The notes beneath the pieces were generated by a model. It was not told the origin of the DNA and did not search any database. It saw only the letters and a list, made by a program, of their open reading frames with translations. From assembly GCA_027487835.1 (NCBI GenBank), contig JAIYCU010000025.1, positions 21,890-85,889 of the forward strand: a stretch of 64,000 nucleotides of DNA, given 5' to 3'. Below are positions 1-61,323 of this stretch, in pieces; positions within the stretch are counted from its first letter, which is position 1, and every line of letters starts with the position of its first letter. This DNA is from Bacteroidota bacterium (GTDB lineage Bacteria > Bacteroidota > Bacteroidia > UKL13-3). The position numbers were made by a program, and so were the translations under genes.

Positions 1-2362
1 TGTATTCGTTCTTAGTATTTCTGATGATGTCACCAAGTCGTGGAGGGTTTATTTGAGACAAAGAATCAAATCCAACATGTTTATAAAAAGCATTATTAAG
101 GGCTAAATTTTGTCCACTAAATACTAATCTCACCGTAGTAAATAATGCAATGGCCCCACCAATTGGATTTAGTAAAACAAGTTCCCCTGCCGAATATCTA
201 CTTGGGTCATCGAATCTGCTAAATTCGCAGGTGGCTGTTAAAAACATAGGAAGTTTAACCCCGTTTTCAGTTTTACCATTGGTCCAAGAAGTCACATCTT
301 CTATCCCCATCACCCTTTCAGCAGTTAGCCCAACTTCTCCTCCATGTCCAGTATAGTTAAAAATTAAGCAGCCATTTTCTATGCTATTATTAATGGCCTT
401 TTTTGCATCTGGATACCTAGCTCCACCTGCCGTACTTTCTAGTTTGTAAGCATCTAAAAATATTTTTTCAATATTGTATTCAGGGTACTTATTAATTAGG
501 TTACTGGCCAGGGCATCTGCCTGTCCAATATGGCTACTTCCATCCCCATCATCTGCCGAGAAAACAATCTTATTGCGCCAATTTCCATAGGCTTCAATAC
601 TGGTGTAAGAAATTATTTTATTCACCAAATTGCTCGCCTCTTCTTCATTGGTAACAATAAGCCTACCAATGCCAATGTCTAATGATTCTTTAACGCCTTG
701 GTTCGGCCATAAATCTATTGCTTGGTCCCACAAACCTTCAGTATCTTCTAAGAACCCAAAATAATCATCACTGCAATAGCTACTTGTTGGGGAAAATGAT
801 TCCCAGCTTTCAAACGTAGGTATATAATTGGTATTGGGCTTTTGTCTGTATTTGTAATCATAAGAGGCGCGTCCAAATAGTAGGGCATATTTTGGTGCTT
901 GTGCAGGCGAATTTGCCCTTAAATAAAACATCCGTAAAAAGTCTCTAATGGCCGAAATATCTTGGGCTCCTCCTGAAAACTCATTATAAATTTCTTGTAT
1001 ATTCACTACATGAATATTAAGACCTTGAAGTTTGTTATGATGCGCAGCAAGTCTAAATGCCTCTTTGGTAAATGCTGGATGGGTGATAATAAACCCATCT
1101 GGAATGTTTAAGGCATGCAGATTTTGATTCGCTAAAGATTGCCAACCAGCAATTTGTAAAAAATTACTTCCATCAAATACTGCAAAGGTTTTTAGCGAGT
1201 CGGTAAAAGAATTAAAAACAAATTCGCTTGCAACTAAGCTTCCTTCTAGCAAAAATGCTTGTAATGGGTTGGTAACATCCCAAACAGTTAGGTTTCGGTT
1301 TGAACCAACCGCGTATTTTGCAGTATTACCAATGCCTAAATGGCTTGCATCTTTGAAAACAAAATTTCCATTTGTATTTCTTAAGGTTGCCTTGGCTTGA
1401 ATTTCAAAAAAATCTAGCCACCCTACACTTCCAGAAGCCGGTTTATTATAAACGTAACTTAAAGTAAAATTAGCTGCTGGAGGAATAAAATTTGTTGTAT
1501 TGATAATGAGTCCGCAAGTATATGGGGCTTCGTAGCCTGGAGAAACCTCTCTACAATTTTGGGTCAACAAATTTGTCGGGCCTAATTTTATATCAAAAGT
1601 GCTTGGAAAAAATGACCTAGCGGTTACAGACGACTTCATGCTTACCGAAGAGCCCACGACCCAATTTGGAATGCTTACATTAAACGATTGTTGGGTAACA
1701 CGGTCAAATTCTTCACCAACCCAAACTTTACCTGATTTTCCTAAGTTGGAGAGGTCGTTGTTATATACCTGCAAATAGTTATATGTACTTATTGTGGTAT
1801 CAGTATTATTGGGGCTATTTCCTTTAACAACGCGTTTGCCTGGCGAATTAGATAAGGTTAAGAAATAGTACGTAGTATCACAATATAAGTTGGAATTAAA
1901 AGAATATTGATTGGTATTGGCGTCAAAATTCCATTGATTTATTTGGGATTCTCCATAAAAGGCGAGAAAGTCACCAGGATTAAGTCTGCCATCTGATTCA
2001 CCTTGCACAATGATAGCAATTTCTTGTAAATCGTCAATTCTTGATTTGTTATTAGGTGTTGGAAGCATGCCAGCGCCAATTCCATAAAGTTTTAAATTTC
2101 GAGGGTCGAGCTGGTCCACATTAAATCCCATAGATTTAAGCAAAGTTTGATCAATTCTGTAGATTCCATTTTGTGTAGTGGCAATTTTGAACCAATTTCC
2201 GGTTGCAAGCACCGAGTTTAATGTAAAAGTTGGTTTTTTCTTGGCTAGCGTATTTGGGTAGTTATTTGTGGGTATTTGGGCATCAATAGCAAAGCTAGTG
2301 AGCAGCAATAAAAAGCTGAAAGCTAAATACTTATTAAAAAATGTATCCAGGTTTTGTTTCAT
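1..2362 (-). CDS. porU: T9SS sortase PorU (peptidase C25 family), N-terminal part; runs off window start
   Basis: Missing from the ORF track because there is no stop in the window. Manual translation from ATG at 2362 gives MKQNLDTFFNKYLAFSFLLLLTSFAIDAQ...SVLATGNWFKIATTQNGIYRID, with the C25 catalytic motifs NYTGHGGE (~330-360) and TATCEFSRFDDP (~205-240). Divergent from porP/gldJ. Confidence 0.93.
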   Translation of the reverse strand, partial: MKQNLDTFFNKYLAFSFLLLLTSFAIDAQIPTNNYPNTLAKKKPTFTLNSVLATGNWFKIATTQNGIYRIDQTLLKSMGFNVDQLDPRNLKLYGIGAGMLPTPNNKSRIDDLQEIAIIVQGESDGRLNPGDFLAFYGESQINQWNFDANTNQYSFNSNLYCDTTYYFLTLSNSPGKRVVKGNSPNNTDTTISTYNYLQVYNNDLSNLGKSGKVWVGEEFDRVTQQSFNVSIPNWVVGSSVSMKSSVTARSFFPSTFDIKLGPTNLLTQNCREVSPGYEAPYTCGLIINTTNFIPPAANFTLSYVYNKPASGSVGWLDFFEIQAKATLRNTNGNFVFKDASHLGIGNTAKYAVGSNRNLTVWDVTNPLQAFLLEGSLVASEFVFNSFTDSLKTFAVFDGSNFLQIAGWQSLANQNLHALNIPDGFIITHPAFTKEAFRLAAHHNKLQGLNIHVVNIQEIYNEFSGGAQDISAIRDFLRMFYLRANSPAQAPKYALLFGRASYDYKYRQKPNTNYIPTFESWESFSPTSSYCSDDYFGFLEDTEGLWDQAIDLWPNQGVKESLDIGIGRLIVTNEEEASNLVNKIISYTSIEAYGNWRNKIVFSADDGDGSSHIGQADALASNLINKYPEYNIEKIFLDAYKLESTAGGARYPDAKKAINNSIENGCLIFNYTGHGGEVGLTAERVMGIEDVTSWTNGKTENGVKLPMFLTATCEFSRFDDPSRYSAGELVLLNPIGGAIALFTTVRLVFSGQNLALNNAFYKHVGFDSLSQINPPRLGDIIRNTKNEY
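1292..1308 (-). repeat. Dispersed motif TTGGTTCAAACCGAAAC, perfect copy
   Basis: Inside porU, read as GSNRN. Confidence 0.9.
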
Positions 2363-2515
2363 TTTCTAGTTGAAATATTTTTATTAAAATTGCGTTATTT
2401 CGAACTAATAACGACAACAAATTAAAGTAAATTGTTTGAACACGTAACAACATATTAAAACTATTCTTATAATTGCAATTCTGAGTATTTTCTATTTAGG
2501 CTATTTAATTAATTA

Positions 2516-3511: not shown

Positions 3512-3597
3512 TTTTCCAAAATTTTATTAAGTTGCAGTTCGATATACTTTATTGAGAAATAATGAGTTTCTTAATTTTAAACTATCGATTTAAAGAT

Positions 3598-4590: not shown

Positions 4591-4641
4591 TAAAATTCTA
4601 AAAAAAAGTGGACACTCACATGAAAATGTTAAAAAATTCGT

Positions 4642-4649
4642 TAGTTTTG
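4642..4649 (+). promoter_or_regulatory. Bacteroidota sigma70 -7 element (TAGTTTTG) upstream of gldJ
   Basis: Matches TAnnTTTG, 23 nt before the ATG. Confidence 0.55.
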
Positions 4650-4672
4650 AAAATTCCAATAGTTATCTAATT

Positions 4673-6121: not shown

Positions 6122-6140
6122 TATTCACAATTAATTGAAT

Positions 6141-6176
6141 AAAAAAAGGCTCCCAATTGGGGGCCTTTTTTATTTT
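6141..6176. terminator. Bidirectional rho-independent terminator between gldJ and the convergent T9SS cargo gene
   Basis: AAAAAAAGGCTCCC-AATT-GGGGGCCTTTTTT, a GC stem flanked by A and T runs; overlaps the stop of 6170..8971. Confidence 0.85.
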
Positions 6177-8971
6177 AGTAAGGTGATAGTGCCATGAAAG
6201 TCTTTCCAGTCTTGGGCCATTTTCTTTTTGGTTTTAAGGATATAATAATACACCCCTTCACTCATTTCATTTCCATTTTGGTCTTTACCATTCCAAGCAA
6301 AATCAATGGTATTTGCTGTAAAAATTGTTTGACCCCAACGGTTATAAATGATTATTTCCCCATCCTCACATTGCCCAATTACGCCAGATAATTTAAATAC
6401 ATCATTGTATCCATCAGCATTTGGTGTAAACACATTTGCCTGCTTAAAATTACTCAAAGAATCTGGTAAGTATACTGTCCCTACGGCCGTGTCGGCGCAA
6501 TTTGTTCCGTACTCTGTAATCAAAATTATGGGCAAGTTATAATACTGTGAGACCAATTTCTTTACGGGATTTTCTTCATAACTGCTATCTCCGTCTGGGA
6601 AGCGCCAAAAGAAGTTGGCCGCACCAGGTGTTTCATTGAAAAAGGTAAAAATAGAATTACATGTATCAATGGTATGGCTAAACTTAGTTTTAGAAATTCT
6701 GAAGTCAAACTTTAGGGCCGCATTGCTACAACGCGGACTTACATTTAATGGACCGAAAACATTGGCAGGGGTGGTTTTTAAATCAGAAAATGGGTTGTTT
6801 CCTTGAGGACAACTGGCACACATACTTTGGTAAACCACGCCTCTTTTATCAAATCTGCTTGTACCGCCGTCTACATGGTCGCCTGTATTATCTGGATTAT
6901 CACCGCCTAAAAATGTAGCATATAAAAGGTCGCTTGCCTCTTTATTTAGTAGCATTAGGTAAAAATCGCTTCCATCTGTTTTGGGCTGAAAGGCGTCTGC
7001 GGTAACTTGTAAGCCAATGGTTGATGAATTGCTTCCGTCGATTTTGGTGGCTGTTTTACCACCCCAAGAACTCACGTAAATACGTTTGCAATCATCCACC
7101 AAGAAGGCATTAATGGTAAGGTCAATTTGGTTGCGGCCTGAACCAAATACGGTTGACCATCTTTTGGTTTTTAGGTCTTCTGTAAATGAGGCAATAAATT
7201 GATGTGCATTGGGATTGCTGAATTTGCCCGCACTTACTGGAATGGTTCCTTTACTTTGTCCAACAATGTAAATATTTTTATCAGCATCTTCTTCTAGGGA
7301 GATAATTTGATCGTATTGATCAGTCCCAAAATAGGTTGCTGCAAGTAAACTTTTTCCATCATTAGAAACTTTTGCAATGAGCCCATCACAAGTACCACCT
7401 GAAAAGCTTGGTTGAAAAGAGGTTGGGTCGGTTTTAAAATCAATGCTATTGGTGCCACCACATAATAGAATTTCGTTGGATTGAGTAAAATCAATGCTAT
7501 AGAAAGCATCAGCACCGCTGCCACCCAATAAAGTGCACCAATCTAAACTGCTTAGGTTTGGGTTAAACTTTGCTATTACTCCGTCTTGTTGGCCTTTTAG
7601 CACGTTTTGATAGGCTCCATTGGTGGTTGGAAAGGTATCAGATTGGGTAAAGGAAGTAAGGTATATATTATTGTTAAGGTCGGTTATGATATCCCCTCGA
7701 TAGCTATCTGCAAAGAAGTAATTTGTAATGCCGTTAAAGTTAATGCCATCATTTGCTTTTCCTCCTAAATAGGTAGAAGCAAGTAATTGTCCATTTGCAT
7801 TAAATTTAGCAACAATAATGTCATGTCTACCATTATGGGTGGTATCATATGCTTGTAATGTAGTGGGAAAATTAGAGGAGTATGTATTGCCCAAGACCAA
7901 AAGATTGTTGGCATTATCAATTACAAGGCTATGAGGAATTTCATTATTAGTACCTCCTAGATAAGTTGCATAAAGCAAGCTACTGCCGTCGCTGCTATAT
8001 TTAGAAAGGGTAATATCACACGGAAATTGAGAAAGGCCTATTTCGCCTTCAGAAAAGCCTCCACCTGCAAAGTTTAATTGAAATGCGCCTGAGGTTGTTG
8101 GATATTTTCCATTGGCAATTGTACTTGGGCCAGTGGTAATACCAGCGGCATATAAAGTTCCATTTTCACCATAGGTTGCAGAGCAACCAAAATTATCTGC
8201 AGTGGCGCCAGAGTATGTGAGAAACACAATTTCTGGGTCGATTATAAGCGGATAATTTGGGTTGTATTGATTATTCACTTCAAAACTAAGCTTGTTTTGT
8301 ATAAGTTTAAAATCAACCCTCACAAAGGTTTTAGTACCCTCTATAATTTGCCAAGCAATTGGTTGAGTTTCTTTGATGGTTTCATAATCGGTTTGAATAT
8401 AGAGTTCGCCATTTTGCAGGTAAATGGCTTTTGCGCCATTCACTTTAATTTGCAGTTGATGAATAGGTGCGTGGGGTTCGAGCAAGTATTCGTATTTTAG
8501 TTTGTTCTCGCTCGTATTTAGGCGAAGATGTATGCCGGGATAAAGGTTTTTAAGTTGAACCGATTGTGCAACTGGCACATTTGTTTGCCAATTTTCAGGA
8601 TTTTTTCCAATAAAGTAATTATGGTAATAATTGGCAGGTGTTTCAATTATTGGCAATCCAATTTGTGCATTTTCAAAGCTTAGGTTCAAACCGAAAACTT
8701 TAAGCGTTGAATCCTCTGCTAATTTTGTAGCATGGTGCTTCCTCAGTCTGTTGGTTTGGGCGGGTTCAAAAAAGTAATATTGAATGCCATTTCCTTTTAC
8801 ATGAATTTCATGATAGGCTGCAACTTGTCTAAATAAAATAGCCGAAGGCCATTGTCCTTTGTTTTGAACCCAATGCGATGAAAAATTGGAAGTTTGTGTT
8901 GCACTAGTTTGGGCTTTAAGTACAAGACTTATCAAAACTAGCGAGGCACTTATGAATATTTTTAGGTTCAA
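6170..8971 (-). CDS. Secreted SBBP-repeat (beta-propeller)/PKD protein with T9SS type B CTD (CHU_C)
   Basis: TTG start, signal peptide, WVQNKGQWP N-domain, repeated YATYLGG/STYLGG units, C-terminal NVFTPNADGYND...YNRWG...EGVYYY...GTITLLK. Confidence 0.88.
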   Translation of the reverse strand: MNLKIFISASLVLISLVLKAQTSATQTSNFSSHWVQNKGQWPSAILFRQVAAYHEIHVKGNGIQYYFFEPAQTNRLRKHHATKLAEDSTLKVFGLNLSFENAQIGLPIIETPANYYHNYFIGKNPENWQTNVPVAQSVQLKNLYPGIHLRLNTSENKLKYEYLLEPHAPIHQLQIKVNGAKAIYLQNGELYIQTDYETIKETQPIAWQIIEGTKTFVRVDFKLIQNKLSFEVNNQYNPNYPLIIDPEIVFLTYSGATADNFGCSATYGENGTLYAAGITTGPSTIANGKYPTTSGAFQLNFAGGGFSEGEIGLSQFPCDITLSKYSSDGSSLLYATYLGGTNNEIPHSLVIDNANNLLVLGNTYSSNFPTTLQAYDTTHNGRHDIIVAKFNANGQLLASTYLGGKANDGINFNGITNYFFADSYRGDIITDLNNNIYLTSFTQSDTFPTTNGAYQNVLKGQQDGVIAKFNPNLSSLDWCTLLGGSGADAFYSIDFTQSNEILLCGGTNSIDFKTDPTSFQPSFSGGTCDGLIAKVSNDGKSLLAATYFGTDQYDQIISLEEDADKNIYIVGQSKGTIPVSAGKFSNPNAHQFIASFTEDLKTKRWSTVFGSGRNQIDLTINAFLVDDCKRIYVSSWGGKTATKIDGSNSSTIGLQVTADAFQPKTDGSDFYLMLLNKEASDLLYATFLGGDNPDNTGDHVDGGTSRFDKRGVVYQSMCASCPQGNNPFSDLKTTPANVFGPLNVSPRCSNAALKFDFRISKTKFSHTIDTCNSIFTFFNETPGAANFFWRFPDGDSSYEENPVKKLVSQYYNLPIILITEYGTNCADTAVGTVYLPDSLSNFKQANVFTPNADGYNDVFKLSGVIGQCEDGEIIIYNRWGQTIFTANTIDFAWNGKDQNGNEMSEGVYYYILKTKKKMAQDWKDFHGTITLLK
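8681..8696 (+). repeat. Dispersed motif copy TAGGTTCAAACCGAAA
   Basis: Antisense inside the SBBP gene, read as FGLNL. Confidence 0.85.
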
Positions 8972-8975
8972 ACCG
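8963..8975 (+). repeat. Dispersed motif copy TAGGTTCAAACCG
   Basis: Overlaps the TTG start of the SBBP gene. Confidence 0.8.
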
Positions 8976-9114
8976 TATTTTTTTTCTCCACTAAATTAGG
9001 CAATTCGCAGGGGAAAAGGCAATAGGCTTTCTAATTATGTATTATTTAAGAAAAAAAATAGGAGCATTGCAACCATAAGGAAACCTTTTTAATCTAACCT
9101 ATAAGTACGTTAAA

Positions 9115-16724: not shown

Positions 16725-17189
16725 ATGAAACATTCCTTTTTGGTTCAAACCGTAGTTTTATTATTCTTTACTTTGGCTTTAAGTTGCCAAAGCAATAAGA
16801 TATATACGGCTAATACTATTCCAGCAGAATGCTTGGAATTTGGCACAGATGACACAAATACGGGTCTTAAGGTCTCATGGATTTTTTTGGAAAATGGACA
16901 AGTATTTTACAGAACCAATTTATTTACGGTATCGCAAAAGTCATTGTCTAGATCTGCCGTTAAAAAGTTGTTTGTAGAGGCCAATCGCATCAAGCGATCC
17001 GGTTTTAAGTTTAGGGCTGAAGGTGCTTATCGGGCTTTTATTACTTTTAAAGAGGCAAGTCACCAGAATGAATCTACTTGGATTTGGCCTTATGGCGGTA
17101 CCAAGGATTATCCTGATGAGCTTAAGAAGTTATATAAGCTTTGTGAAGAGGCTGCCCAATTGAGCAAGGAAGAAATTAAGACAGATTAA
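16725..17189 (+). CDS. Hypothetical lipoprotein
   Basis: Hydrophobic N-terminus with lipobox LALSC; no recognised domain. Confidence 0.7.
   Translation: MKHSFLVQTVVLLFFTLALSCQSNKIYTANTIPAECLEFGTDDTNTGLKVSWIFLENGQVFYRTNLFTVSQKSLSRSAVKKLFVEANRIKRSGFKFRAEGAYRAFITFKEASHQNESTWIWPYGGTKDYPDELKKLYKLCEEAAQLSKEEIKTD
16740..16752 (+). repeat. Dispersed motif copy TTGGTTCAAACCG
   Basis: In a lipoprotein signal peptide, read as LVQTV. Confidence 0.85.
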
Positions 17190-44427: not shown

Positions 44428-45403
44428 TTAGCGGGTAAAGGCTAATGGCAAGCATAATTTCCATAAAAAACCAGATTCTAAACAAGGCATTGCGTTTTTT
44501 GTTACTAAACTCCCAAACCGATTGAACCATTTGTGAATAGTTGTGCATTTGTTGGCTAACCATGCCAAAGGCATTTTCTTCTGCAACCTTAGAGGATATT
44601 TTTTGCAACAAAAACCTTAGCAAGGGAGTTACAACAAACAATATAACTACTAAAACCAAAAGGGTTCTAAGTAATACATACAATCCCTTATTTAGGGTTC
44701 CTTCGCTAAGCCAAAAGGTGAATCCAATAAATGCCAAGGTTAATAATAGGCCTAGCCATTTTAAGCTAAATTTCGATTTTGTTTTATTTTGAGCAATTGG
44801 GTTTGGTTCAAACCGAGGTAAACTGCTAGCAATTAAAAATAACTTTTGAGGGAGCTTAAAGGATTTATAACCTAGAAAAATACCCCAAAAGAAATAGAGT
44901 GAAGCATATAATAGCATTAGCCAAAAGCTAAACGAAAAATCTGGAGAAAGATGGAAATCTTTGAGCAAGCCCATTACAAAAATATCCAATGCCTCCCAAA
45001 TACTTTTTCCGTAAAGGAGCGTGGTTAGTAAGAACTTTTGCAAGGCAGATTCTAGCAAGGCAATGGCGCCAAATAGCATACAAGTAAAAATGTTCCTGCC
45101 AAGTAGCCCAAAAATTATCCAAGCCATGAGCCCTTGAAATCCCACAGCAATATAAGCTGGGAGAGGGGCTTGCGGGCTCACCAAAAACTTAATTGACATT
45201 ACTAGTAAGGTTGCCTTAATTATTTGGTATGGTTTGTGTTTGTATTGCTGCGCCAACAACATAAGGATAATGCAAGCAAAACCTCCAACAAAAAAACCAG
45301 TGAATGGGAGTTTAATGGCATGTAAAAGACCTCCTAGTCCACTTTCGCAAAAAGCCCAAAGTGCTATAAGGTTTATTTGTTCTTTTGTATGTTGTTTATC
45401 CAA
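44417..45403 (-). CDS. Multi-pass membrane protein of unknown function
   Basis: About 8 hydrophobic segments; ALWAFCESGLGGLLHAIKLPFTG; overlaps the next gene by 11 nt. Confidence 0.75.
   Translation of the reverse strand: MDKQHTKEQINLIALWAFCESGLGGLLHAIKLPFTGFFVGGFACIILMLLAQQYKHKPYQIIKATLLVMSIKFLVSPQAPLPAYIAVGFQGLMAWIIFGLLGRNIFTCMLFGAIALLESALQKFLLTTLLYGKSIWEALDIFVMGLLKDFHLSPDFSFSFWLMLLYASLYFFWGIFLGYKSFKLPQKLFLIASSLPRFEPNPIAQNKTKSKFSLKWLGLLLTLAFIGFTFWLSEGTLNKGLYVLLRTLLVLVVILFVVTPLLRFLLQKISSKVAEENAFGMVSQQMHNYSQMVQSVWEFSNKKRNALFRIWFFMEIMLAISLYPLNEN
44803..44816 (+). repeat. Dispersed motif copy TTGGTTCAAACCGA
   Basis: Antisense in a membrane-protein loop, read as RFEPN. Confidence 0.85.
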
Positions 45404-45940: not shown

Positions 45941-48118
45941 ATGATCAGACCTTTAATAGTCATTTTAATAAATACCCTTTGCTTTGGATTCGTTTCAGGG
46001 CAAAGGGTTTTTAATGAAAGCATTCCAAGGTTTTTTTCAGATTCAATGGGTAAATATTGTGAGTGGGAAGCTTGGGGCTATAGAAACATCCCCGAATACC
46101 TATGTACTTGCAATAACTTAGATGCGGCTAAAACAACACAAACCAATGCCCTGTGGCCAGGAGCAAGTTTAGGTTTGAACCTAAATGGCGCTGGCTTAAA
46201 TAAATTAGGTGTTTGGGATGGTGGCCGCGCCCGAACTTCACATATTGAGTTTGGTGGCCGTGTAATTATCATGGATTCTGGCGGAACCTTAAGTTCTCAT
46301 ACCACTGCAGTGGTTGGAAACATGATTGCTGCTGGTATCAATGCAAATGCAAAGGGGATGAGCTTTGCTGCCCAGCTAAAGAATTGGAATTTCACTAATG
46401 ACAATGCAGAAATAATTGCAGCAGCAGCAGATTTGTTTTTATCAAACCACTCTTATGCTTCTACATCAGCCTGGACAAATATCAGCGGACAATGGTACTG
46501 GTATGGAGACAGTAGTTTGCATCCTACGCGTGATTGGAAGTTTGGCTATTATGATAACCGCAGCAGAATTTGGGACAGTGTAATGTATGCCAATCCTTAT
46601 TATTTAATGGTTAAGGCCAGTGGCAACGACCGTGGTGCGGGTATTGCACCTGGAACGCCCCACTATTATTGGAATGGAACGGCTTGGGCTTTGAGCACCA
46701 CTACGCGTGATTCTGTTGGACCTTATGATTGCATCTCTACCTTTGGAAATGCAAAGAATATTCTTTGTGTGGGCGCTGTTCCTGTTCAACCCAATGGGCC
46801 ATTGGGTGCCATCAATACCTTAAGCTTTAGCACTTGGGGTCCTACTGATGATGGTAGAATAAAGCCAGATTTGGTGGCCGCAAGCGGAAATATAATCTCA
46901 GTGGGTTCTGCTACTGATTCTGCCTATGCGGGCCTTGGTGGTACTTCCATTGCTGCGCCAAACGTAACTGGTTCCTTGCTTTTATTGCAGCAATATAACC
47001 ATCAGCTTAAAGGAAACTACTTATTTAACGCTACCCTTAAAGCCCTTGCCATACACAGTGCAAGAAGATGCAAGCCTACCTTACTTGGTCCAGATTATGA
47101 ATGTGGCTGGGGAATTCCAGACTTTGCAAAGGCCGCTTTGTGTTTAAAAGATTCCTTTAAAAATAGGGTAGTAGAAGCAACCTTGCAAGCGCAAGATTCA
47201 TTTCAACTATTTGTTTACCTTAACCCAACAGATACCTTTAAAAGTACCTTGGTTTGGACAGACCCTAAAGGGATTACTGCCGCACCTGTTTATAATGATA
47301 CTACCCTCAAATTGGTAAATGATTTAGACATGCGCTTGTTTACTCAAACTGATTCGTTGGTTGGGATGCCCTTTGTCTTAAACCCTGCTAATCCTGCCTT
47401 GGCCGCAACATCTGGAGACAACTTTAGAGACAATGTAGAACAAATAATAAAGACAAATCTTGTGGCAGGTTGGTATAAAATTAAGATAAAACACAAAGGA
47501 AGTCTTCAAAATAATATTGCACAAAAGTTCTCCTTGGTGGCAAGCGGTAGTCATGCCCTATTGGCTTTGCCTGTAAGTTACCTTTCAATGCATGCCCAAC
47601 AACTTTCTATCAAAGAAATTCAATTGAAATGGCAAACGGTTCAAGAAGTAAATAATAAAGAATTTGAAGTATGGCACGGAACCGATGTCAATGCATTGTC
47701 ATTTGTAGGAAAGGTGCCTGGCAAAGGAAATTCAAATATACTGCAATCCTATCAGTTTGTGTTGAACCAAGCGAAGGGTTTTGCAGGTACCCAGTATTTT
47801 CAATTGAGGCAAAAGGATTTAGATGCTAAGTTGTCTTATTCAAAAATTATTAGTCTTGACCCAAGCGTTGAATTAAACATTTCGTCTATTTTTCCAAATC
47901 CATTTAAGGAGGAAGTAAACATTCGTTACCAGGCTAATGAGCAAAGTAAACTTAGTATAATGAGCATGGCCGGTGAGCAATTGTTTTCAATTGAATTACT
48001 GCCCAATAGCAATGGAATCTACACTTTGAACCTAAAACAATTGCCAGCAGGTTTATACATTTTATTACTTCAAAACAGCAATGGCCAGGTTGCGTATAAG
48101 TTATTAAAGGAGCAGTAG
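45941..48118 (+). CDS. Secreted subtilisin-like serine peptidase (S8) with T9SS type A CTD
   Basis: Catalytic D (GVWDGG), H (SSHTTAVVG) and S (GGTSIAAPNV); GPTDDGRIKPDL; LPVSY domain; IFPNPF...AGLYIL tail. Confidence 0.92.
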   Translation: MIRPLIVILINTLCFGFVSGQRVFNESIPRFFSDSMGKYCEWEAWGYRNIPEYLCTCNNLDAAKTTQTNALWPGASLGLNLNGAGLNKLGVWDGGRARTSHIEFGGRVIIMDSGGTLSSHTTAVVGNMIAAGINANAKGMSFAAQLKNWNFTNDNAEIIAAAADLFLSNHSYASTSAWTNISGQWYWYGDSSLHPTRDWKFGYYDNRSRIWDSVMYANPYYLMVKASGNDRGAGIAPGTPHYYWNGTAWALSTTTRDSVGPYDCISTFGNAKNILCVGAVPVQPNGPLGAINTLSFSTWGPTDDGRIKPDLVAASGNIISVGSATDSAYAGLGGTSIAAPNVTGSLLLLQQYNHQLKGNYLFNATLKALAIHSARRCKPTLLGPDYECGWGIPDFAKAALCLKDSFKNRVVEATLQAQDSFQLFVYLNPTDTFKSTLVWTDPKGITAAPVYNDTTLKLVNDLDMRLFTQTDSLVGMPFVLNPANPALAATSGDNFRDNVEQIIKTNLVAGWYKIKIKHKGSLQNNIAQKFSLVASGSHALLALPVSYLSMHAQQLSIKEIQLKWQTVQEVNNKEFEVWHGTDVNALSFVGKVPGKGNSNILQSYQFVLNQAKGFAGTQYFQLRQKDLDAKLSYSKIISLDPSVELNISSIFPNPFKEEVNIRYQANEQSKLSIMSMAGEQLFSIELLPNSNGIYTLNLKQLPAGLYILLLQNSNGQVAYKLLKEQ

Positions 48119-49028: not shown

Positions 49029-49676
49029 TTAGAATTTACCCCTTATGCCTGCCGAAAGAATGCCATTGTAGCCAAATCCAAACTCTGCGAAGCCGCTAAC
49101 TTGCTTGCCAATCTCAATGCCAAAAGGGGTTAATTGCCCACTAAAATAATTATACTTTACACTAACGTCGCGCGCTGCTGGGTTTGTGTAGGTAACAGTT
49201 TGACTAAATTCATGCATACTCAAACCAATTTTGCCGTATAATTTTGTGCGTTCATTTTTATTGTAAACAAAAAGACATTCTAGACCTATGGTTTTTGTTT
49301 TATTATAATAAGCACCATATTTAGTATAAAGGGTGGTGCTACTTTCTCTTTCAATATCGCCTTGTTGATTGTCTAAACCAACGCTAAGTCCAAATCTGAT
49401 TTGTCTGTTTGGGGAGTAATGATACTGTGCATAAAGCCCTCCGGTTCTTGTTTTGTTTGTGTACCTATTAGAACCAGCTGAAAAAGCATAATAAAGAACT
49501 TCTCCTAAACCATTTAGTATTTGTGGTAAGGTTGCTACACCTGCTTGAAAAGCTAGGTGGTGCGTTGGGTTGCTTTTGGCAGTGGAATCTTTTACATTGT
49601 ATCTGTAAGTTTGAGCATTTGCCAATTGGTTCAAACCGAAACAAAAAAAGAAGAGGCTAAGTAATTTAGTTTTCAT
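49029..49676 (-). CDS. Small outer-membrane beta-barrel protein
   Basis: Signal peptide, alternating beta-strand pattern, terminal FAEFGFGYNGILSAGIRGKF. Confidence 0.8.
   Translation of the reverse strand: MKTKLLSLFFFCFGLNQLANAQTYRYNVKDSTAKSNPTHHLAFQAGVATLPQILNGLGEVLYYAFSAGSNRYTNKTRTGGLYAQYHYSPNRQIRFGLSVGLDNQQGDIERESSTTLYTKYGAYYNKTKTIGLECLFVYNKNERTKLYGKIGLSMHEFSQTVTYTNPAARDVSVKYNYFSGQLTPFGIEIGKQVSGFAEFGFGYNGILSAGIRGKF
49626..49642 (+). repeat. Dispersed motif TTGGTTCAAACCGAAAC, perfect copy
   Basis: Antisense in the OMP signal peptide, read as CFGLNQ. Confidence 0.9.
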
Positions 49677-49730: not shown

Positions 49731-52703
49731 ATGAAACCGCTAAGCCTATCCCTATTTTTGCTTTTACTTCAAATTGGCCTTAGTGCTCAAAATCCTATTA
49801 GCTATCCCAACCAAGGAACCTTATTGGCAGCATCAACAAACCAGCAGCATCATTATTTTTTATTTAGGTCTTCGCAGTCTTCTATTGTAGTAATTGATGA
49901 AAACACCAAGAAGGATTCGGTTATTCTTTTAGATAAATCATGGATAAGCGAGGCAGTTGCCTTGCCAACAGGATTTTTGTTTTATGCTGACGATGATGTG
50001 CTTCAAAAAAATGAATTATGGTATTTTGATTTTAAAGATGGACTTATTAATACAGGGCTGGTTCATGGAGGCTCTAGCCTTATTAGGCCATTTTTTAGAA
50101 ACAACCAGTTGATTATTCTTGCCTTTGATAAAACTTGGAATGTGTATCAATTTGATGCAAAGCAAAAGCAAGCTATATGGCAATTCAGCACCTCGCAAAT
50201 CATTCAAGATGTTTTTGTGATTAGCAATATCCCAGTGGTTCAGATTAGCATTGCAAACCAAAGTAAGTTTGAATATTGGTTGTGTCAACAAGATTCCTCT
50301 AAAAAAATATTTGAAGGTAAGTTTCCTGCATCCTTTCAACAGCCTTCCTTATTTGCAGTTGATTCCGATGCAGCTTATATTTCGCTACCTCGTAAAACCA
50401 ATGCAGAGGTATTTACTACTGTTTATAAATTACATATTAACGGAGCCGATTCTTTTGGACGAACCAGCATAAGGACACAGCGTTCTTTATGGGATGTAAA
50501 TAAGTTTAGGGAACCTTATCCTATCGCCAACAATGGTATTGTAAGATTTGTGCCTGAAGCCTATTCTAATGATAGTTTACCCTTGGTTCAACTACAAATT
50601 AGCAACTTAACTTGGCGCAGTATTTTGCCTAAAAGTGCCACAGCGTTTAAAGGAAATAGGCCTTGGGATTTAGACGAATTAGGCAATAACAGGTGGATGA
50701 TTAAAAGCAAAGTATGCGGTATTGAGTTAGCCGTACTTAAAGAAGACACTATGTTTGAGGTGGCAGATTATTGGAAAGGTCCTTCGGATGGGATTCAGCT
50801 TTATTTTGGTGCCTTCATGGGTTCGGCTTTTTACGGCGATTCTTTGTTTTTTTTAAGCAGCAATGGCAAAGATGGCAAATGGTATTTAAGCTATCAAAAA
50901 GGGGATGAGCAAAAAATTCATCAGCTGATGCCTATCCCTTCTGATTATAGTCTTGATAGAAGAAGGATTAATTTTTTATATCCTACCCCAAATGGATGTT
51001 TTGTAAGTTATGAGCTAACCGGCAACACTCCAGCAGCCTTGGTTTACTATGCTTTTTTAGCCTCGCCTTTGGTTCAAACCGAGCAAAACAATGCCAAGGA
51101 GGGCGAATGGATGAGGCAATTTTCGGAGGTTTCTGTTAGCAACAATTCATCAAATAGGGTATTGGTAAGTTGTTTATTGGTGAACCAAAATAGTGAGTCT
51201 TACATTAGCTTGGAGAAAGGAGTTTACGACCCAATGATGGATGCAGATACCAAAGAACCTTTGCAAGGCTTAGGCTCTCAGCACATCATCAAGTTAGATA
51301 AAAATGGCAATAGACTTTGGGATTTTACCTATGGTTTCCCAGCAAGGTCTGGCAATACAAGAATGGGGCTTCAACCCAATGGAGATGTGGTGATAGCTGG
51401 TTGCGCATGGCATTATGCTGTCATTGGCAATGACTCTAATGACAATAATAATGTTAACTACCTCTTAGCCTTAGATGCTAATACAGGGCAACCTAAATGG
51501 TCTGAATGGTTTATGCCCAAGCCTAAAAACTCCGCCCCCGAAGAAATAGAAGCCTTAACCTGCGACAATAAAGGGAATATTTATATGGTTGTAAAGGTTA
51601 CAGGGACACAGTTTTCTTATGATAATATCAACCTAGTTTTGAGCAAACCAGATGCCCATGTGCTGATTAAGTTAAATGAATTTGGATCCTCTATTTGGGC
51701 CCACGAAATTAAACAAGATTGGGTAGGCGTTTGGACAGGCACTGTGGTGAAGATTTTAGTGGATGAAACCCAAGAGCAGGTTATTACCTTAAATACCCAG
51801 TCGGCTTACTACAATACAGGTAGTACATGCGATTATACAGATTGGTATGTTACTTATTCGGCAGTGGATGCTAAGAGCGGAAAGCTTAGATGGAAAAGAG
51901 AACTCACCTTTTCTGATTTAGGTGGCATGCTCACCCTCGAAAAATCAGCTAATAATTTTATTCTTAGCACAGGGTATTTTAGAGGTTTTTCAGAAATAGA
52001 CCAAGATAAAGTAGAAACTCCAAGAGACGAAGATTGTCATCAAACGCGTGCATTTAGGCTGGTGTTAAATCCTTTAAATGGAGAGGTGCTTTATAAAACC
52101 TTGTTTTCTTTCCCCAATTATTTGCCAGTTAGAACTGCCACAGACAAAGAGGTGGTTTGGGAAGTAGGCTTAAATAAAGTAACTAGTTCCGACAGAAATT
52201 ATCACGTTTCTCTGCTTGCCAATGATTTGCATGGTAGGCCTTTTGAACCCTTAAAGATTGAAAAAGCTACGGGTCCTGGCGACTTTGGATATAACGGTCG
52301 TATAGCCATTCAAGATGGGTATGTTTGGATAAGCGACCTTACCTCTAAACAGTTTGGTCCATTTTATAGCAACATCACGCAAGCCAATTCGGTAAGCATT
52401 GTAAGGCTTAAATTGCCAGAGGTGGCCTCCCTCTCCAATAATTACAATGCAGAAGCACTGGAAGAAAAACTATTCTTAGGGCCTAATCCTTTTACCCATC
52501 AATTGCAGTTAAGTTATCCAGAAAAAGGGTACTACAGAAACTTTGAAGTATATGATTTATCAGGGAAATTAATCTTAGAACAGCCTTTGTTGGCGGATGT
52601 AGACATTGAAAAAATAGACATGAGCGCCTTACCAAAGGGATTGTTTATCTTTAAGTTTATTGGGAAAGATAGGGTGCTGGTTAAAAAATTGATCAAGGAG
52701 TAA
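49731..52703 (+). CDS. Secreted protein of unknown function (probable beta-propellers) with T9SS type A CTD
   Basis: Start moved to ATG 49731 (MKPLSLSLFLLLLQIGLSAQ); IIKLDKNGNRLW/LIKLNEFGSSIW repeats; LGPNPFT...YDLSGKL...KGLFIFK...KKLIKE tail. Confidence 0.8.
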   Translation: MKPLSLSLFLLLLQIGLSAQNPISYPNQGTLLAASTNQQHHYFLFRSSQSSIVVIDENTKKDSVILLDKSWISEAVALPTGFLFYADDDVLQKNELWYFDFKDGLINTGLVHGGSSLIRPFFRNNQLIILAFDKTWNVYQFDAKQKQAIWQFSTSQIIQDVFVISNIPVVQISIANQSKFEYWLCQQDSSKKIFEGKFPASFQQPSLFAVDSDAAYISLPRKTNAEVFTTVYKLHINGADSFGRTSIRTQRSLWDVNKFREPYPIANNGIVRFVPEAYSNDSLPLVQLQISNLTWRSILPKSATAFKGNRPWDLDELGNNRWMIKSKVCGIELAVLKEDTMFEVADYWKGPSDGIQLYFGAFMGSAFYGDSLFFLSSNGKDGKWYLSYQKGDEQKIHQLMPIPSDYSLDRRRINFLYPTPNGCFVSYELTGNTPAALVYYAFLASPLVQTEQNNAKEGEWMRQFSEVSVSNNSSNRVLVSCLLVNQNSESYISLEKGVYDPMMDADTKEPLQGLGSQHIIKLDKNGNRLWDFTYGFPARSGNTRMGLQPNGDVVIAGCAWHYAVIGNDSNDNNNVNYLLALDANTGQPKWSEWFMPKPKNSAPEEIEALTCDNKGNIYMVVKVTGTQFSYDNINLVLSKPDAHVLIKLNEFGSSIWAHEIKQDWVGVWTGTVVKILVDETQEQVITLNTQSAYYNTGSTCDYTDWYVTYSAVDAKSGKLRWKRELTFSDLGGMLTLEKSANNFILSTGYFRGFSEIDQDKVETPRDEDCHQTRAFRLVLNPLNGEVLYKTLFSFPNYLPVRTATDKEVVWEVGLNKVTSSDRNYHVSLLANDLHGRPFEPLKIEKATGPGDFGYNGRIAIQDGYVWISDLTSKQFGPFYSNITQANSVSIVRLKLPEVASLSNNYNAEALEEKLFLGPNPFTHQLQLSYPEKGYYRNFEVYDLSGKLILEQPLLADVDIEKIDMSALPKGLFIFKFIGKDRVLVKKLIKE
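51069..51082 (+). repeat. Dispersed motif copy TTGGTTCAAACCGA
   Basis: In an interdomain linker, read as LVQTE. Confidence 0.85.
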
Positions 52704-56108: not shown

Positions 56109-57418
56109 ACTTTGTTTGGTTCAAACAGAAAATTCTTACATTCCATTATCATTTCTTCATCAATTTTTCCAAGCTCTGCGGTGGAAATTTCGTTTACCAA
56201 ACCTGGATCATACGCTGTTTTTACCTTTATGTAATTACTTGTAAAACCATACATGGTATTGCCATCGCTTTCAGCTTCCCATAAAACTGGGTAAGATTTG
56301 CCAATATGTTCTTCATAAAAGGCCCTGCGTTTTTTATCAGATAAAATATGAAGCATTTTACTTCTATCAGCACGCACCTGCATAGGCACTTTACCTGGCA
56401 ATTTGAAGGCGGTTGTATTTTCTCTTTCGCTGTAGGTAAACACATGCAAATAAGAAATTGGGAGTTCGTTTAGGTATTGGTAAGTCTCTAAAAACAACTC
56501 CTCTGTTTCTCCTGGAAATCCCACAATTACATCAACTCCAATGCAACAATGTGGCATGAGTTTCTTAATTTTTTCTACCCTTGAAGTATATAAAGCAGTA
56601 AGGTATTTCCTGCGCATACTTTTTAACAAGGTATCTGAGCCCGATTGCAATGGAATATGAAAATGAGGCACAATTTTTTTGGATTGCGCCACCCAATCAA
56701 TTATTTCATCACTTAATAAATTAGGTTCAATGCTGCTAATGCGTATGCGTTCTAAACCTTCAATTTGGTCTAAGGCTTGTAAAAGTTGGTAAAAGTTTTG
56801 GTTCGACCCAATGCCAAATTCACCGGTATTTACGCCTGTTAATACAATTTCTTTGGTGCCTTGGGCTACAATTTCATGGGCTTGCTTTACCACATTTTCA
56901 ATGGTATCACTTCTGCTTTTACCTCTTGCCAAAGGAATGGTACAAAAAGAACAGAAATAATCGCAACCATCTTGCACTTTAAGAAAGGTTCGGGTTCTAT
57001 CGCCAATAGAGTAGGAGGCATGATACTCCAATACTTCTTTGATTTTTCCGTCTTTTACTTCTGCTATTTCTTTTTTCTGGCCTGACCCAATATGCTGATG
57101 TAAATTAAATTTTTCTGCAGCACCTAACACCAAATCTACCCCTTCAATCTGGGCAATTTCTTGCGGTTTAAGTTGCGCATAGCAGCCAATTATCGTGATA
57201 AAAGCATTTGGGTTATGCCTGAGTGCTTCTTTTACGATGCGTTTGCATTTCTTATCGGCATTGTCTGTAACAGAGCAAGTATTAATAACATATACATCTG
57301 CACCTTCATGAAATTGCACTTTGGCGTAACCTTCGGCCAGTAACGACCTGCCAATGGTGGAAGTTTCGGAGAAGTTAAGTTTACAACCTAAGGTATAGAA
57401 AGCAACTGATTTAGACAT
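56105..57418 (-). CDS. mtaB: tRNA t6A37 methylthiotransferase MtaB
   Basis: TLGCKLNFSE, INTCSVT, radical SAM CDYFCSFC, TRAM tail. Start moved to MSKSVAF at 57418. Confidence 0.92.
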   Translation of the reverse strand: MSKSVAFYTLGCKLNFSETSTIGRSLLAEGYAKVQFHEGADVYVINTCSVTDNADKKCKRIVKEALRHNPNAFITIIGCYAQLKPQEIAQIEGVDLVLGAAEKFNLHQHIGSGQKKEIAEVKDGKIKEVLEYHASYSIGDRTRTFLKVQDGCDYFCSFCTIPLARGKSRSDTIENVVKQAHEIVAQGTKEIVLTGVNTGEFGIGSNQNFYQLLQALDQIEGLERIRISSIEPNLLSDEIIDWVAQSKKIVPHFHIPLQSGSDTLLKSMRRKYLTALYTSRVEKIKKLMPHCCIGVDVIVGFPGETEELFLETYQYLNELPISYLHVFTYSERENTTAFKLPGKVPMQVRADRSKMLHILSDKKRRAFYEEHIGKSYPVLWEAESDGNTMYGFTSNYIKVKTAYDPGLVNEISTAELGKIDEEMIMECKNFLFEPNKV

Positions 57419-57428
57419 AATTGGGGCG

Positions 57429-57436
57429 CAAAAGTA
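57429..57436 (-). promoter_or_regulatory. -7 element TACTTTTG(CGC) upstream of mtaB
   Basis: TAnnTTTG 10 nt before the corrected ATG. Confidence 0.65.
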
Positions 57437-57540
57437 ACCATATATACGGAAAGCAACAAGTATAGAAATTTGTAACATTAAGGATTATTTAAGCTACTAA
57501 TACATTGGAATTTATGTCTAAGTTGTATATTTCCACTTGA

Positions 57541-60500: not shown

Positions 60501-61323
60501 AGTGAGGGTTTTGCCTTCCATTAGTGCAGCTATCATTGGCCCAGATTCGGTTTGCAAGGATGAACCTTTTAATTTGATTGCAAGACCAAAAGGCTTATAC
60601 CAAGGCTTTAATTGGTTTGTAACTGATACCAGTAATGGCATTCAAGAATTGTTTCCAGATACGGTATTAAGCCATACCTATACCCGCTCAGGCACGTATC
60701 GGGTGCGGATGTTTCCATTGCTAAGTGGCAATAAGTGCACAGACACCAGTTTTAAATCCATTCATGTGAGTGAGGTCTTTGCCGACTTTGAAATGGATCA
60801 AACCGAACTACCATTGGTTAAATTTACCAATAAATCCTTGGGTGCAGTTAGATATGAATGGGACTTTGGACACCTTGTTTCTGGGCCAAAAAACTATTCT
60901 ACCCTCGCCAATCCTACGCATAGTTTTATTGGTGATTCGGGTGCCTTCTTGGTGTGTTTAAAGGCATTTAATGATCAAGATTGTGTAGATTCTATTTGTA
61001 AGTTAACCTTGCCTGCTGAAATTAGGATTAAAATTCCAAATGTATTTACGCCCAATGCCGATGGCACAAATGATGCGTATGATATAGACGCAGTAGGCAT
61101 CATTAAATATAAATTAGACATTTTTAACCGTTGGGGCGAAAAAGTCTATTCTTCAGAGCGAGATGGTTTTGGAAATGATGGAATTAATTGGAACGGTAGG
61201 GTTAGAAACGAAGGAAAAGAATGCCCAGAAGGTACCTATTACTTTGCGTTTATTTACCAATTGGCAAACATGGCAGAAGCAAAAGATGTGCATGGAACCA
61301 TTACCCTATTAAGAGGTGAATAG
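57541..61323 (+). CDS. 1260-aa secreted multi-PKD, Cys-rich protein with T9SS type B CTD
   Basis: Signal peptide; WNFGN/WEFGD/WDFGD repeats; IPNVFTPNADGTND...FNRWGE...EGTYYF...GTITLLRGE. Confidence 0.9.
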   Translation: MKRKVLSFFIWLLPVLAMAQNCKIITGTNKVCLGNTVLFTVSIDPGFTASSYAWNFGNAAISSQASPVYQYPARGLFTPTVTINFLGGGSCTVSGDPIRVVGNPNADFQVSSSLSQCFKNNQFCITDLSAPGQDNAPIQTRLFLWGDGAFSNQSPPIGNTLCQTYANPLGGVYTLTLEVYDTNNCSARKERKDVVTVFSKMQEVSFRTNYTVQCFSTPALFTNTSKIPLAQVKSYRWEFGDSTSATSPWTNFTKNYTKSGIFTAKLIVEDLNGCRDTAIVTPAAENYKLDSTIYLDKVRTCYNYNSFTFVSKNFFPGVIVNWAVYKVGNPNRIDSITLTNMDSISLTDCGQFQLRMYVRLGSCSFRRDTLIEVLGPKSVIETPLDRVNNSIQCEIHDTVIFRGPPPADRSCFYQNSNILRVWDFDDPFAPACTTDVKLNINVGVNCRYSKDSLNVKHSYTPGKERCYYPKLTLTDLASGCTHYDTTSLKLTPPDAGWDSTVSPVRRGLYYTGIPCIKSGITFHLDETLPLCGREQVWIMTDTACDNATWIKIDSNENKFEYSYQSTCSKDGKVTVGLIIKNGLDKNGNPCYDTAYYPVMFTFFPLDPSFTVTTVSTGCGPFTIKLVMNDSIQDSLVRAVFSQSVNRTLFFNSGDSIIPTQYFTFATPGIKRIKLELYNTRKCVLDFQRDVFFGFFKTFQPDKEIICLGDSIELKDNVSYYNSPILHWKDPARAAAGKEQLYWDFGDGRGFATAGPNPKFKYTKVGNYRLRMVAVDSIGCRDTFTYSILVKVVDLQAAVKSMQARYLCAPQILAFEDRSIYTDSSALYGQTPYDAIASWNWDFGDSKTPSLLQNPVHAFTTNGTFNVKLRVSTLRGCIDSAFVPIWIDGPRPRFDIVSDTIGCAPFAVNLKNTTGYPLINWIWYFRDQLNSVSSTKLDTNVKFTYVNPGTYKIYVVGEDTIFDPLTGNFKTCLAVFPDSLNVNAERRTVRVLPSISAAIIGPDSVCKDEPFNLIARPKGLYQGFNWFVTDTSNGIQELFPDTVLSHTYTRSGTYRVRMFPLLSGNKCTDTSFKSIHVSEVFADFEMDQTELPLVKFTNKSLGAVRYEWDFGHLVSGPKNYSTLANPTHSFIGDSGAFLVCLKAFNDQDCVDSICKLTLPAEIRIKIPNVFTPNADGTNDAYDIDAVGIIKYKLDIFNRWGEKVYSSERDGFGNDGINWNGRVRNEGKECPEGTYYFAFIYQLANMAEAKDVHGTITLLRGE

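Follow-up and report, generated by a model that had tools for sequence, protein, structure and literature searches.

An unpolarized 17-bp DNA word dispersed through the genomes of uncultured Bacteroidota, with a possible role in DNA uptake

The stretch analyzed here (the window, 64,000 nucleotides of contig JAIYCU010000025.1, assembly GCA_027487835.1) is ordinary chromosomal DNA of a gliding Bacteroidota organism with a type IX secretion system (T9SS). Its genes include those for a PorU-like protein, two PorP/SprF proteins, GldJ, thymidine kinase, FabG, Rpe, a thiolase, Sua5, DapA and MtaB, together with several very large T9SS cargo genes; searches of the window for mobile-element genes, tRNAs and Rfam matches found none. 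Written through these genes is a 17-bp motif, TTGGTTCAAACCGAAAC, with five perfect copies at 1292(-), 28400(+), 39650(+), 43088(+) and 49626(+). The original prediction, made from the sequence of the window, had proposed that this motif acts as a signal on DNA and may be oriented to the replichore. We describe its copies in the window, its distribution and conservation among relatives, and what kind of system it may belong to.

In an unbiased k-mer count, words belonging to the motif gave the strongest over-representation in the window, the top 9-mer being its core, TTGGTTCAA, at 25 copies (12 on the + strand and 13 on the -). On recount, the numbers and coordinates first given for the 17-mer and for the 11-mer GGTTCAAACCG (10 exact copies, nine on + and one on -) were correct, as was the GC content judged by eye at ~37% (37.5% when computed). 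Every 10-mer core and one-mismatch copy named at the outset was present, although three one-mismatch copies on the - strand (20489, 26555 and 39514) had been overlooked. With up to one mismatch to the 11-mer there are 19 sites vs. 0.77 expected, 12 on + and seven on -; with up to three mismatches to the 17-mer there are 15, where dinucleotide shuffles gave 0.25 on average and two at most. The mismatch spectrum of the 17-mer is five perfect copies, none with one mismatch and four with two. Spacing is more even than random, with a largest gap between copies of 7.9 kb vs. 13.5 kb expected (P = 0.01). The sites are as follows.

1292..1308, - strand: perfect 17-mer, sense, in the PorU-like C25 peptidase gene (2-2365, -; Pfam), frame GSNRN
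8681..8697, + strand: TAGGTTCAAACCGAAAA (two mismatches, exact 11-mer), antisense, in the CHU_C/DUF7948 gene 6170-8971, VFGLNL
8963..8979, + strand: TAGGTTCAAACCGTATT (exact 11-mer), overlapping the TTG start codon (8971) of gene 6170-8971
16740..16756, + strand: TTGGTTCAAACCGTAGT (exact 11-mer), sense, in gene 16725-17189, within its signal peptide (MKHSFLVQTVV)
21090..21106, - strand: TTGGTTCAAACCTTAAA (10-mer core), sense, in gene 19967-22075, peptide LVQTLK
28400..28416, + strand: perfect 17-mer, antisense, in the class IV aminotransferase gene 27896-28624, SFGLNQ
34230..34246, + strand: TAGGTTCAAACCTAATT (10-mer core), sense, in the gene for a 3026-aa T9SS cargo protein, peptide IGSNLI
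39650..39666, + strand: perfect 17-mer, sense, LVQTET, in the C-terminal sorting domain of gene 30755-39835
43088..43104, + strand: perfect 17-mer, sense, LVQTET, in the M43 peptidase/T9SS gene 41951-43336
43222..43238, - strand: TTGGTTCAAGCCGAAAA (two mismatches), antisense, in gene 41951-43336, 134 bp from the 43088 copy and inverted to it
44803..44819, + strand: TTGGTTCAAACCGAGGT (exact 11-mer), antisense, in the membrane-protein gene 44417-45403, LPRFEPN
46167..46183, - strand: TAGGTTCAAACCTAAAC (two mismatches), antisense, in the S8 peptidase gene 45941-48118, SLGLNL
49626..49642, + strand: perfect 17-mer, antisense, in gene 49029-49676 (signal peptide, CFGLNQ); gene 49677-52703 starts 35 nt downstream
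51069..51085, + strand: TTGGTTCAAACCGAGCA (exact 11-mer), sense, LVQTEQ, in the gene for a 1008-aa T9SS cargo protein
56116..56132, + strand: TTGGTTCAAACAGAAAA (two mismatches), antisense, in the C-terminus NFLFEPNKV* of the MtaB gene 56105-57478
60793..60809, + strand: ATGGATCAAACCGAACT (weak; 11-mer with one mismatch), in the CHU_C adhesin gene 57541-61323

Window copies are translated as LVQTE, GSNRN, FGLNQ and RFEPN, and the exact 11-mers divide into five sense and five antisense, both as first reported; thus neither a single frame nor a single conserved peptide accounts for them, four frames and both gene strands being used. Our reading of the copies also agreed that they occupy tolerant positions, namely signal peptides, one start codon, one C-terminus and T9SS tails. 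A codon-preserving shuffle, which had been suggested as a check, was run 1000 times on the window, permuting synonymous codons within each gene so that proteins and per-gene codon usage were kept. The motif stood far above the shuffle at every length: five observed vs. a mean of 0.06 for the 17-mer, 10 vs. 0.46 (maximum three) for the 11-mer, 13 vs. 0.88 for the 10-mer and 25 vs. 4.7 for the 9-mer. The signal is written at the DNA level, as had been proposed: it appears in several frames, on both gene strands and in intergenic DNA too, and it survived the codon shuffle. An RNA family was rejected with the lack of any Rfam match or tRNA in the window, and a likeness of GGTTCAAAC to the tRNA T-loop was considered and dropped because copies lie on both gene strands.

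The exact 17-mer was then scanned in 185,579 species genomes, yielding at least 102 blocks, and loci were sampled in two ways (L-numbers denote sampled loci). The clade blocks L007-L108 were selected by the motif, while motif-blind loci had DapA, thymidine kinase, MtaB, Hbd or GldJ as their anchor, orthologous loci being reached via members of 90%-identity protein clusters. Approximately 85% of the matches listed fall in about fifteen uncultured Bacteroidota metagenome-assembled genomes (MAGs) from lakes and ponds, among them JAIYAT, JAIOYZ, CAMDHZ, CAYUDC, JAWXAZ, CANKQY, CAILJQ, JAKRSG and NKJG; the remaining listed matches are single occurrences in unrelated phyla, at the level predicted by chance. 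The relatives used below are GCA_027488905.1 (JAIYAT), GCA_945898275.1 (CAMDHZ), GCA_027487655.1 (JAIYDE) and GCA_945860865.1 (CAMARW), and the records JAIOYZ01, CAYUDC01 and JAWXAZ01. In the matched blocks, counts of the 9-mer are 71 in 157 kb for JAIYAT, 81 in 126 kb for JAIOYZ and 60 in 114 kb for CAMDHZ, and over motif-selected and motif-blind loci together the relatives carry approximately one core per 2-5 kb; the motif-blind loci L109, L120 and L130 have six to nine 10-mers per 15-21 kb, and L132 has four.

Ten or more related Bacteroidota species, all uncultured and assembled independently, thus carry the motif at high density. The window's own contig was found again in independent assemblies, and motif-bearing assemblies from NCBI, JGI, ENA and Logan, covering many species, are 66-97% identical to one another. 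Confinement to this contig and an assembly or adapter artefact, two of the outcomes named in advance as fatal to the proposal, can both be set aside. A phage origin was rejected as well, since among 2.9 million viral contigs (IMG/VR) only two carry the 17-mer, one copy each. Some close relatives are motif-free: L134/L135, which has the gene order of the window (syntenic to window 1-16 kb) and shares at least 90% identity with it in GldJ, has no 9- or 10-mer in 21.4 kb, and L113 and L115 likewise have none. The L134/L135 lineage offers a natural motif-free control, the same GldJ variant (P0047) being found on a 2.88-Mb contig. Three of the records (CAMDHZ01, CAMCJW01 and CAYUDC01) have 35-40% GC and bear submitter labels, 'Chitinophaga pinensis' or 'Chitinophaga sp.', that look wrong; among the matches listed, the cultured C. 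silvisoli has a single chance match.

Site positions are conserved between species. The window is syntenic with the JAIYAT/CAMDHZ/JAIYDE group over at least 8-64 kb at 73-79% nucleotide identity, and the syntenic DNA compared (anchored on thymidine kinase or MtaB) was obtained without regard to the motif. Over 20.6 kb anchored on thymidine kinase, all five of the window's 10-mers GGTTCAAACC were exactly kept vs. 9.2% of random 10-mers; in the reverse comparison, five of the relatives' nine 10-mers were shared with the window. Non-shared sites there differ by one or two substitutions (e.g., TTGGGTCAAACC vs. TTGGTTCAAACC), so that alignment of orthologs, another check proposed at the start, finds the point changes expected of gain by substitution. 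The sites are old and maintained, and are gained or lost through point substitution.

Individual sites show the same range of behavior. The 21090 site is identical at 17/17 bases in relatives, and 44803 and 46167 at 17/17 in CAMDHZ, down to their imperfect flanks. The ortholog of 43088 is perfect in CAMDHZ with flanks 68% identical, that of 1292 is perfect in L030 (JAUYMZ), again with flanks 68% identical, and the 43222 site is near-identical in CAMDHZ. The 16740 core is kept in three relatives with differing flanks, and the 8681 core is present in CAMDHZ, JAIYDE and JAIYAT and absent in L134. Lesser differences are seen at 8963 (orthologs have TTGGTTCAAACCGTATT), at 28400 (one mismatch in CAMDHZ and in JAIYAT), at 56116 (TGGG in CAMDHZ where the window has TTGG) and at 56795, a site with three mismatches in the window and one in CAMDHZ. 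The 34230 and 39650 copies have no counterpart at the CAMARW ortholog (L132, ~67% nucleotide identity). The weak 60793 copy, weaker still in CAMDHZ, is possibly a chance match. At 1292 the motif-poor L134 keeps the peptide GSNRN and 16/17 bases (GGT>GGG), and protein constraint therefore contributes to conservation there. At 46167, the peptide SLGLNL is kept in L109 and L110 with other codons and no motif, so that in the window this peptide carries the motif solely via codon choice. Orthologs with the same peptide but no motif, along with the codon-preserving shuffle, rule out a peptide or codon-usage origin.

Aligning all GTTCAA-containing sites gave the same consensus, tTTGGTTCAAACCGAAAc, in five genomes. 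Information runs from position -4 to +12 only, with no conservation beyond (~18 bp), and flanks are unrelated, by which a longer repeat or miniature inverted-repeat transposable element (MITE) was rejected. The core is a quasi-palindrome, TTGGTT-CA-AACCGA, whose arms match at five of six positions. Its top strand can form a hairpin of 6-8 bp with one G-T pair (-4.3 kcal/mol as DNA, -8.5 as RNA), while the complement folds poorly (-2.1 and -3.9 kcal/mol, respectively). The one-strand hairpin with a G-T pair noted originally is borne out by this folding, though not as an account of the whole motif: no conserved upstream partner exists for the conserved 3' end GAAAC, its final AAC included, and the hairpin is therefore only part of the story.

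Among the 98 perfect copies in relatives, 29 are intergenic, an approximately five-fold enrichment given ~6% non-coding DNA by crude open reading frame calls. Many of these lie between convergent genes, directly adjoining a recognizable terminator hairpin and not within it; others are in divergent promoter regions at variable distance to start codons. A promoter element was rejected because that distance is not fixed, and a terminator because a lone copy has no T-run and copies adjoin genuine terminators. Within genes, position is approximately flat, and a gene-position effect was dropped on the finding that copies are spread about evenly along genes. Perfect copies in relatives are sense vs. 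antisense at 45:24. The motif has no stop codon on its sense strand in any frame, and on the antisense strand TGA in one frame, which by itself predicts a 3:2 sense bias and matches the observed ratio. A comparable bias in frame and orientation is seen in known uptake sequences (PMC2346458; bioRxiv 10.1101/2025.10.24.684340).

The original prediction called the motif polarized to the chromosome and named polar motifs such as Chi or KOPS among its analogues; a motif of the Chi or KOPS/AIMS kind (FtsK-orienting polar sequences/architecture-imparting sequences) would be co-oriented with replication. Nine of the 10 exact 11-mers in the window are indeed on the + strand (two-sided binomial p ~0.02), cumulative GC skew rises across the whole window, and a further one-mismatch copy on + lies 4.6 kb upstream of it. 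This bias holds only for the exact 11-mer and fades at one mismatch and at the 9-mer, where the strand counts given above are 12 to seven and 12 to 13. The suggested plot of orientation against GC skew, run on the relatives' blocks, gave no polarity, with 48 perfect 17-mers 'leading' and 50 'lagging' by the sign of block skew (98 among the matches listed). Both orientations are intermixed on every long contig, and adjacent 11-mers within 8-kb blocks were discordant in 56 cases and concordant in 18, an excess of discordant neighbors that is the opposite of a Chi/KOPS-type expectation. Such motifs resemble ours as over-represented chromosomal oligomers acting on DNA regardless of genes, but they are short (Chi 5-8 nt, KOPS 8 nt) and strongly replication-co-oriented, while the motif is unpolarized and, at 17 bp, far longer than any known. 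The motif is used about equally in both orientations, without replichore polarity, and we consider a Chi or KOPS/AIMS role extremely improbable. The original prediction had also held that lack of a switch would support an uptake or nucleoid-protein site; with neither switch nor polarity, it is to these that its own reasoning leads.

Neighboring copies tend to face opposite ways in the motif-selected blocks. Adjacent 9-mers there were discordant in 139 cases and concordant in 69 (~2:1 opposite), at all distances to 8 kb, and this held within the same gene (41/19), between co-oriented genes (35/19) and between opposed genes (21/10). Pairs in '-+' order are tighter (median ~600 bp) than '+-' pairs (~2 kb). 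Inverted neighbors include L020 7291-/7362+, L022 5933-/5998+, L051 5953-/6189+ and, in the window, 43088+/43222- and 39514-/39650+, the last formed with a partial opposite-strand copy (39514-39524(-)) 132 bp upstream of 39650(+). No way is apparent to us in which the choice of blocks could give rise to the alternation; in motif-blind loci it is weak or absent (discordant/concordant 11/13 in the window, 14/8 in CAMDHZ and 16/19 in an independent set).

Inverted pairing could suggest the remnant or target of a miniature mobile element, either repetitive extragenic palindromes (REP, or their REPIN doublets) moved by a REP-associated tyrosine transposase (RAYT) or the ends of MITEs, spread as inverted pairs. 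The imperfect palindrome that folds better in one strand, the pairs 46-250 bp apart in some intergenic regions and the excess of opposite orientations would all suit such elements, and neighbors are likewise often inverted in REPs and bacterial interspersed mosaic elements (BIMEs). However, REPs are extragenic and spread by transposition, while ~70% of perfect copies here are intragenic, and the sites, shared as orthologs between species, arise by point substitution rather than insertion. Moreover, the sharp end of information at ~18 bp, the unrelated and often coding DNA between paired copies and the lack of a transposase in the window stand against this explanation, which is largely contradicted and in our judgment very unlikely.

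The motif varies by lineage in a way that bears on how it is read. At L110 (Ga0163151_10000784, 3587-13042; DapA 76% identical), the G-dialect GGTTCAGACC outnumbers the canonical form six to two in 15.6 kb, and the local consensus, aTTGGTTCAGACCGAAAt, is one base off canonical. JAWXAZ (L010, L067) has six G-variants vs. seven canonical copies, five of the seven being the copies by which its blocks were selected. The G-variant is rare in the canonical genomes JAIYAT, JAIOYZ, CAMDHZ and CAYUDC (3 vs. 58, 3 vs. 51, 2 vs. 37 and 0 vs. 29) and absent from the window (0 vs. 13). L112 tends to GGTTCAAACA, and two sites in L132 are palindromic (GGTTCGAACC). A one-base change in a word used genome-wide, from one sister lineage to another, is reportedly the pattern that Frye et al. 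described in 2013 as DUS dialects. Such a switch is easier to explain by a drive following one reader's specificity than by site-by-site selection.

This consideration bears on another possibility, that the copies form an array of binding sites for an abundant, sequence-specific protein that acts on the chromosome (nucleoid organization, occlusion or segregation), each site being kept by selection in the manner of Noc and its binding sites (NBS), SlmA and its binding sites (SBS) or MatP/matS. A dimeric reader would be suited by the quasi-palindromic core T(T/C)GGTT-CA-AACC(G/A)A, although the conserved 3' GAAAC breaks the symmetry. Site positions are kept across 25% nucleotide divergence, the sites tolerate coding DNA, and inverted neighbors could reflect paired binding or looping. 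Known NBS, SBS and matS arrays comprise some tens of sites, in many cases limited to one part of the chromosome; rather than the tens of palindromic sites of a parS, NBS, SBS or matS array, we found one core per 2.5-5 kb on every contig sampled. A one-base switch would be hard to reach over hundreds of independently selected sites, and a syntenic relative (L134/L135) does without any copy. We regard such an array as rather unlikely.

Dialects of one base are also a feature of words like HIP1, the highly iterated palindrome of cyanobacteria (GCGATCGC). In an explanation of that type, a sequence-specific methyltransferase, nicking or mismatch-repair activity would convert near-cognates into the motif, through biased gene conversion or very-short-patch-type repair, with no role in uptake. 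The motif is dispersed, orientation-neutral, frame-independent and clade-limited, with one-base dialects, features that cyanobacterial highly iterated palindromes reportedly share (Elhai's account of 2015), and its perfect copies dominate the spectrum while single mismatches are few (5/0/4 in the window at zero, one and two mismatches). HIP1 too is dispersed in all coding frames, has lineage variants, has a function not linked to transcription and has possibly spread through conversion or repair bias. It is, however, a short perfect palindrome linked to cognate methyltransferases; the motif is a 17-bp asymmetric word without an obvious methylation palindrome, the window showed neither a methyltransferase nor a Vsr-like gene, and neither intergenic enrichment nor even spacing is predicted. 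We rate a conversion origin of this kind as a minor possibility.

The motif is real, robust and previously undescribed, and by its behavior, not its sequence, its putative class is that of the DNA uptake sequences (DUS) of Neisseriaceae and the uptake signal sequences (USS) of Pasteurellaceae. There is, we think, about an even chance that natural transformation uses it as a DUS/USS-like self-recognition word and that biased uptake with recombination has spread it. In this model the transformation machinery would include a DNA receptor, at the surface or in the periplasm, that prefers DNA carrying the word, and repeated rounds of biased uptake and homologous recombination (molecular drive) would spread and keep it wherever coding allows; when receptor specificity shifted, the genome would follow, giving dialects. 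Abundance, DNA-level encoding, orientation neutrality, clade limits, positional conservation, turnover by substitution, dialects and permissive placement are observed, whereas uptake as the recognizing process, with an uptake receptor as reader, is the putative part. Four of five testable hallmarks of the DUS/USS class were found (copy abundance, equal orientation, clade limits with dialects, and permissive positions); the fifth, embedding in terminators, failed.

Competence genes were sought by regular expression and Pfam over the ~0.8 Mb sampled (~0.2 genome equivalents). Two motif-selected blocks gave DprA (L064 5432-6628) and RecA (L055 685-1725), and L106 3389-4159 (-) in CAMDHZ encodes a membrane-anchored protein of ComEA type with a helix-hairpin-helix motif (TIGR00426, 60.9 bits vs. 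a cut-off of 53.1); the ComEA-like gene contains two inverted motif copies, 121 bp apart. A sole candidate 'pilus ATPase' proved to be an ABC transporter.

Several points weigh against the uptake interpretation. ComEA, DprA and RecA are common in non-competent bacteria; no type IV pilus (ATPase, secretin, prepilin), minor-pilin or ComEC gene was found in the ~0.2 genome equivalents sampled; and the genomes are all uncultured MAGs, for which competence is putative. The ~2:1 excess of opposite orientations in motif-selected blocks is no described property of uptake sequences, the fully conserved 17-bp stretch exceeds a DUS or USS core, and dialects and positional conservation are equally expected from any sequence-specific repair or conversion drive. 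The inverted pairs, at 46-250 bp apart, are not terminator-forming, and intergenic copies are outside hairpins, whereas approximately half of known DUS/USS are inside terminator hairpins (bioRxiv 10.1101/2025.10.24.684340). The motif might instead mark a previously unrecognized genome-wide Bacteroidota system with its sites on alternating strands or in inverted pairs, an idea to which we give little credence; one possible form is a strand-specific hairpin read on single-stranded DNA in replication, repair or recombination. In such a system the reader would co-evolve with the genome (the A/G dialects), and sister lineages would have undergone wholesale loss.

An uptake sequence, as the original prediction suggested, nevertheless remains the closest known analogue. 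Like the DUS of Neisseriaceae (AT-GCCGTCTGAA and dialects, read by the minor pilin ComP), the motif is a hyper-abundant non-palindromic word within the 10-17 bp range, present in both orientations, tolerated in stop-free coding frames, enriched between genes, conserved over a family-level clade with sister dialects of one to few bases, and nearly absent elsewhere. It differs in phylum and in sequence, in density (~1 core per 2.5-5 kb vs. ~1 per kb for DUS), in lying beside terminators without forming them, and in the lack of ComP-type pilin or type IV pilus genes from the sampled DNA, its uptake role being putative. With the USS of Pasteurellaceae (AAGTGCGGT and ACAAGCGGT types) it shares a strong core with graded flanks, two lineage-specific types, orthologous positions kept between species, permissive protein positions and spacing more even than random; USS, however, are unrelated in sequence and have AT-rich, helically phased flanks, while information in the motif stops at ~18 bp. 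The consensus tTTGGTTCAAACCGAAAc shares no core with GCCGTCTGAA, AAGTGCGGT or ACAAGCGGT.

Sequence-specific DNA uptake has been known for more than 40 years, from only two proteobacterial families; how this specificity originated is still argued, as is whether uptake sequences are selected for or are a by-product of biased uptake. A recent survey treats uptake sequences as confined to Neisseriaceae and Pasteurellaceae (bioRxiv 10.1101/2025.10.24.684340). Within Bacteroidota, Riemerella columbina is naturally competent and prefers its own DNA, and a k-mer search found no uptake sequence in it (PMC7965970). Our literature search, for the motif string and for Bacteroidota uptake sequences, returned no description, in agreement with the initial statement that no such motif was described for the phylum. 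If the uptake interpretation is true, these abundant freshwater bacteria would show natural transformation favoring self DNA at work in a major environmental phylum, and a different receptor class is indicated, because neither ComP nor ComN is expected in Bacteroidota. Canonical, G-dialect and motif-free sister lineages with conserved synteny would then supply the contrasts for finding the receptor by phylogenetic profiling, and the word would be a practical marker for binning and for spotting foreign DNA. Should the motif prove not to serve uptake, it would remain a genome-wide signal, not described before, that has been kept across 25% sequence divergence.

Some further observations concern the surroundings of motif copies. 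Near conserved intergenic perfect 17-mers are SAM (S-adenosylmethionine) riboswitches at L023 3551-3671, L059 7150-7270 and L077 4856-4968, and at these three loci a conserved stretch, GGGGACAAGCGGTGGATAAGC, which has no Rfam match, lies downstream of the motif. A 5.1-kb segment of the window (49563-54698), comprising the gene for the 1008-aa T9SS cargo protein and a 284-aa gene, lacks a counterpart in syntenic CAMDHZ, whose contig has ~1.5 kb in its place; the segment contains an exact 11-mer (51071), with the perfect 17-mer at 49626 at its left edge. Between FabG and an ABC transporter, L123 (14750-16101) and L127 (14762-16113) have a 219-aa gene and a DUF3575 gene inserted relative to the window, L120 and L126.

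Window 2-6121 and the adjoining upstream DNA (L128 1-7485) hold a T9SS/gliding cluster with PorV, the PorU-like C25 peptidase, two PorP/SprF paralogues and GldJ. Just upstream of the cluster is a gene for an AddA-type UvrD-helicase/PD-(D/E)XK nuclease (1072 aa), which contains a one-mismatch copy of the motif. At window 54717-56108 (+), a 463-aa protein fuses a DEDD 3'-5' exonuclease to a GIY-YIG/UvrC-like nuclease domain; its gene overlaps by 4 nt the 3' end of the MtaB gene on the opposite strand.

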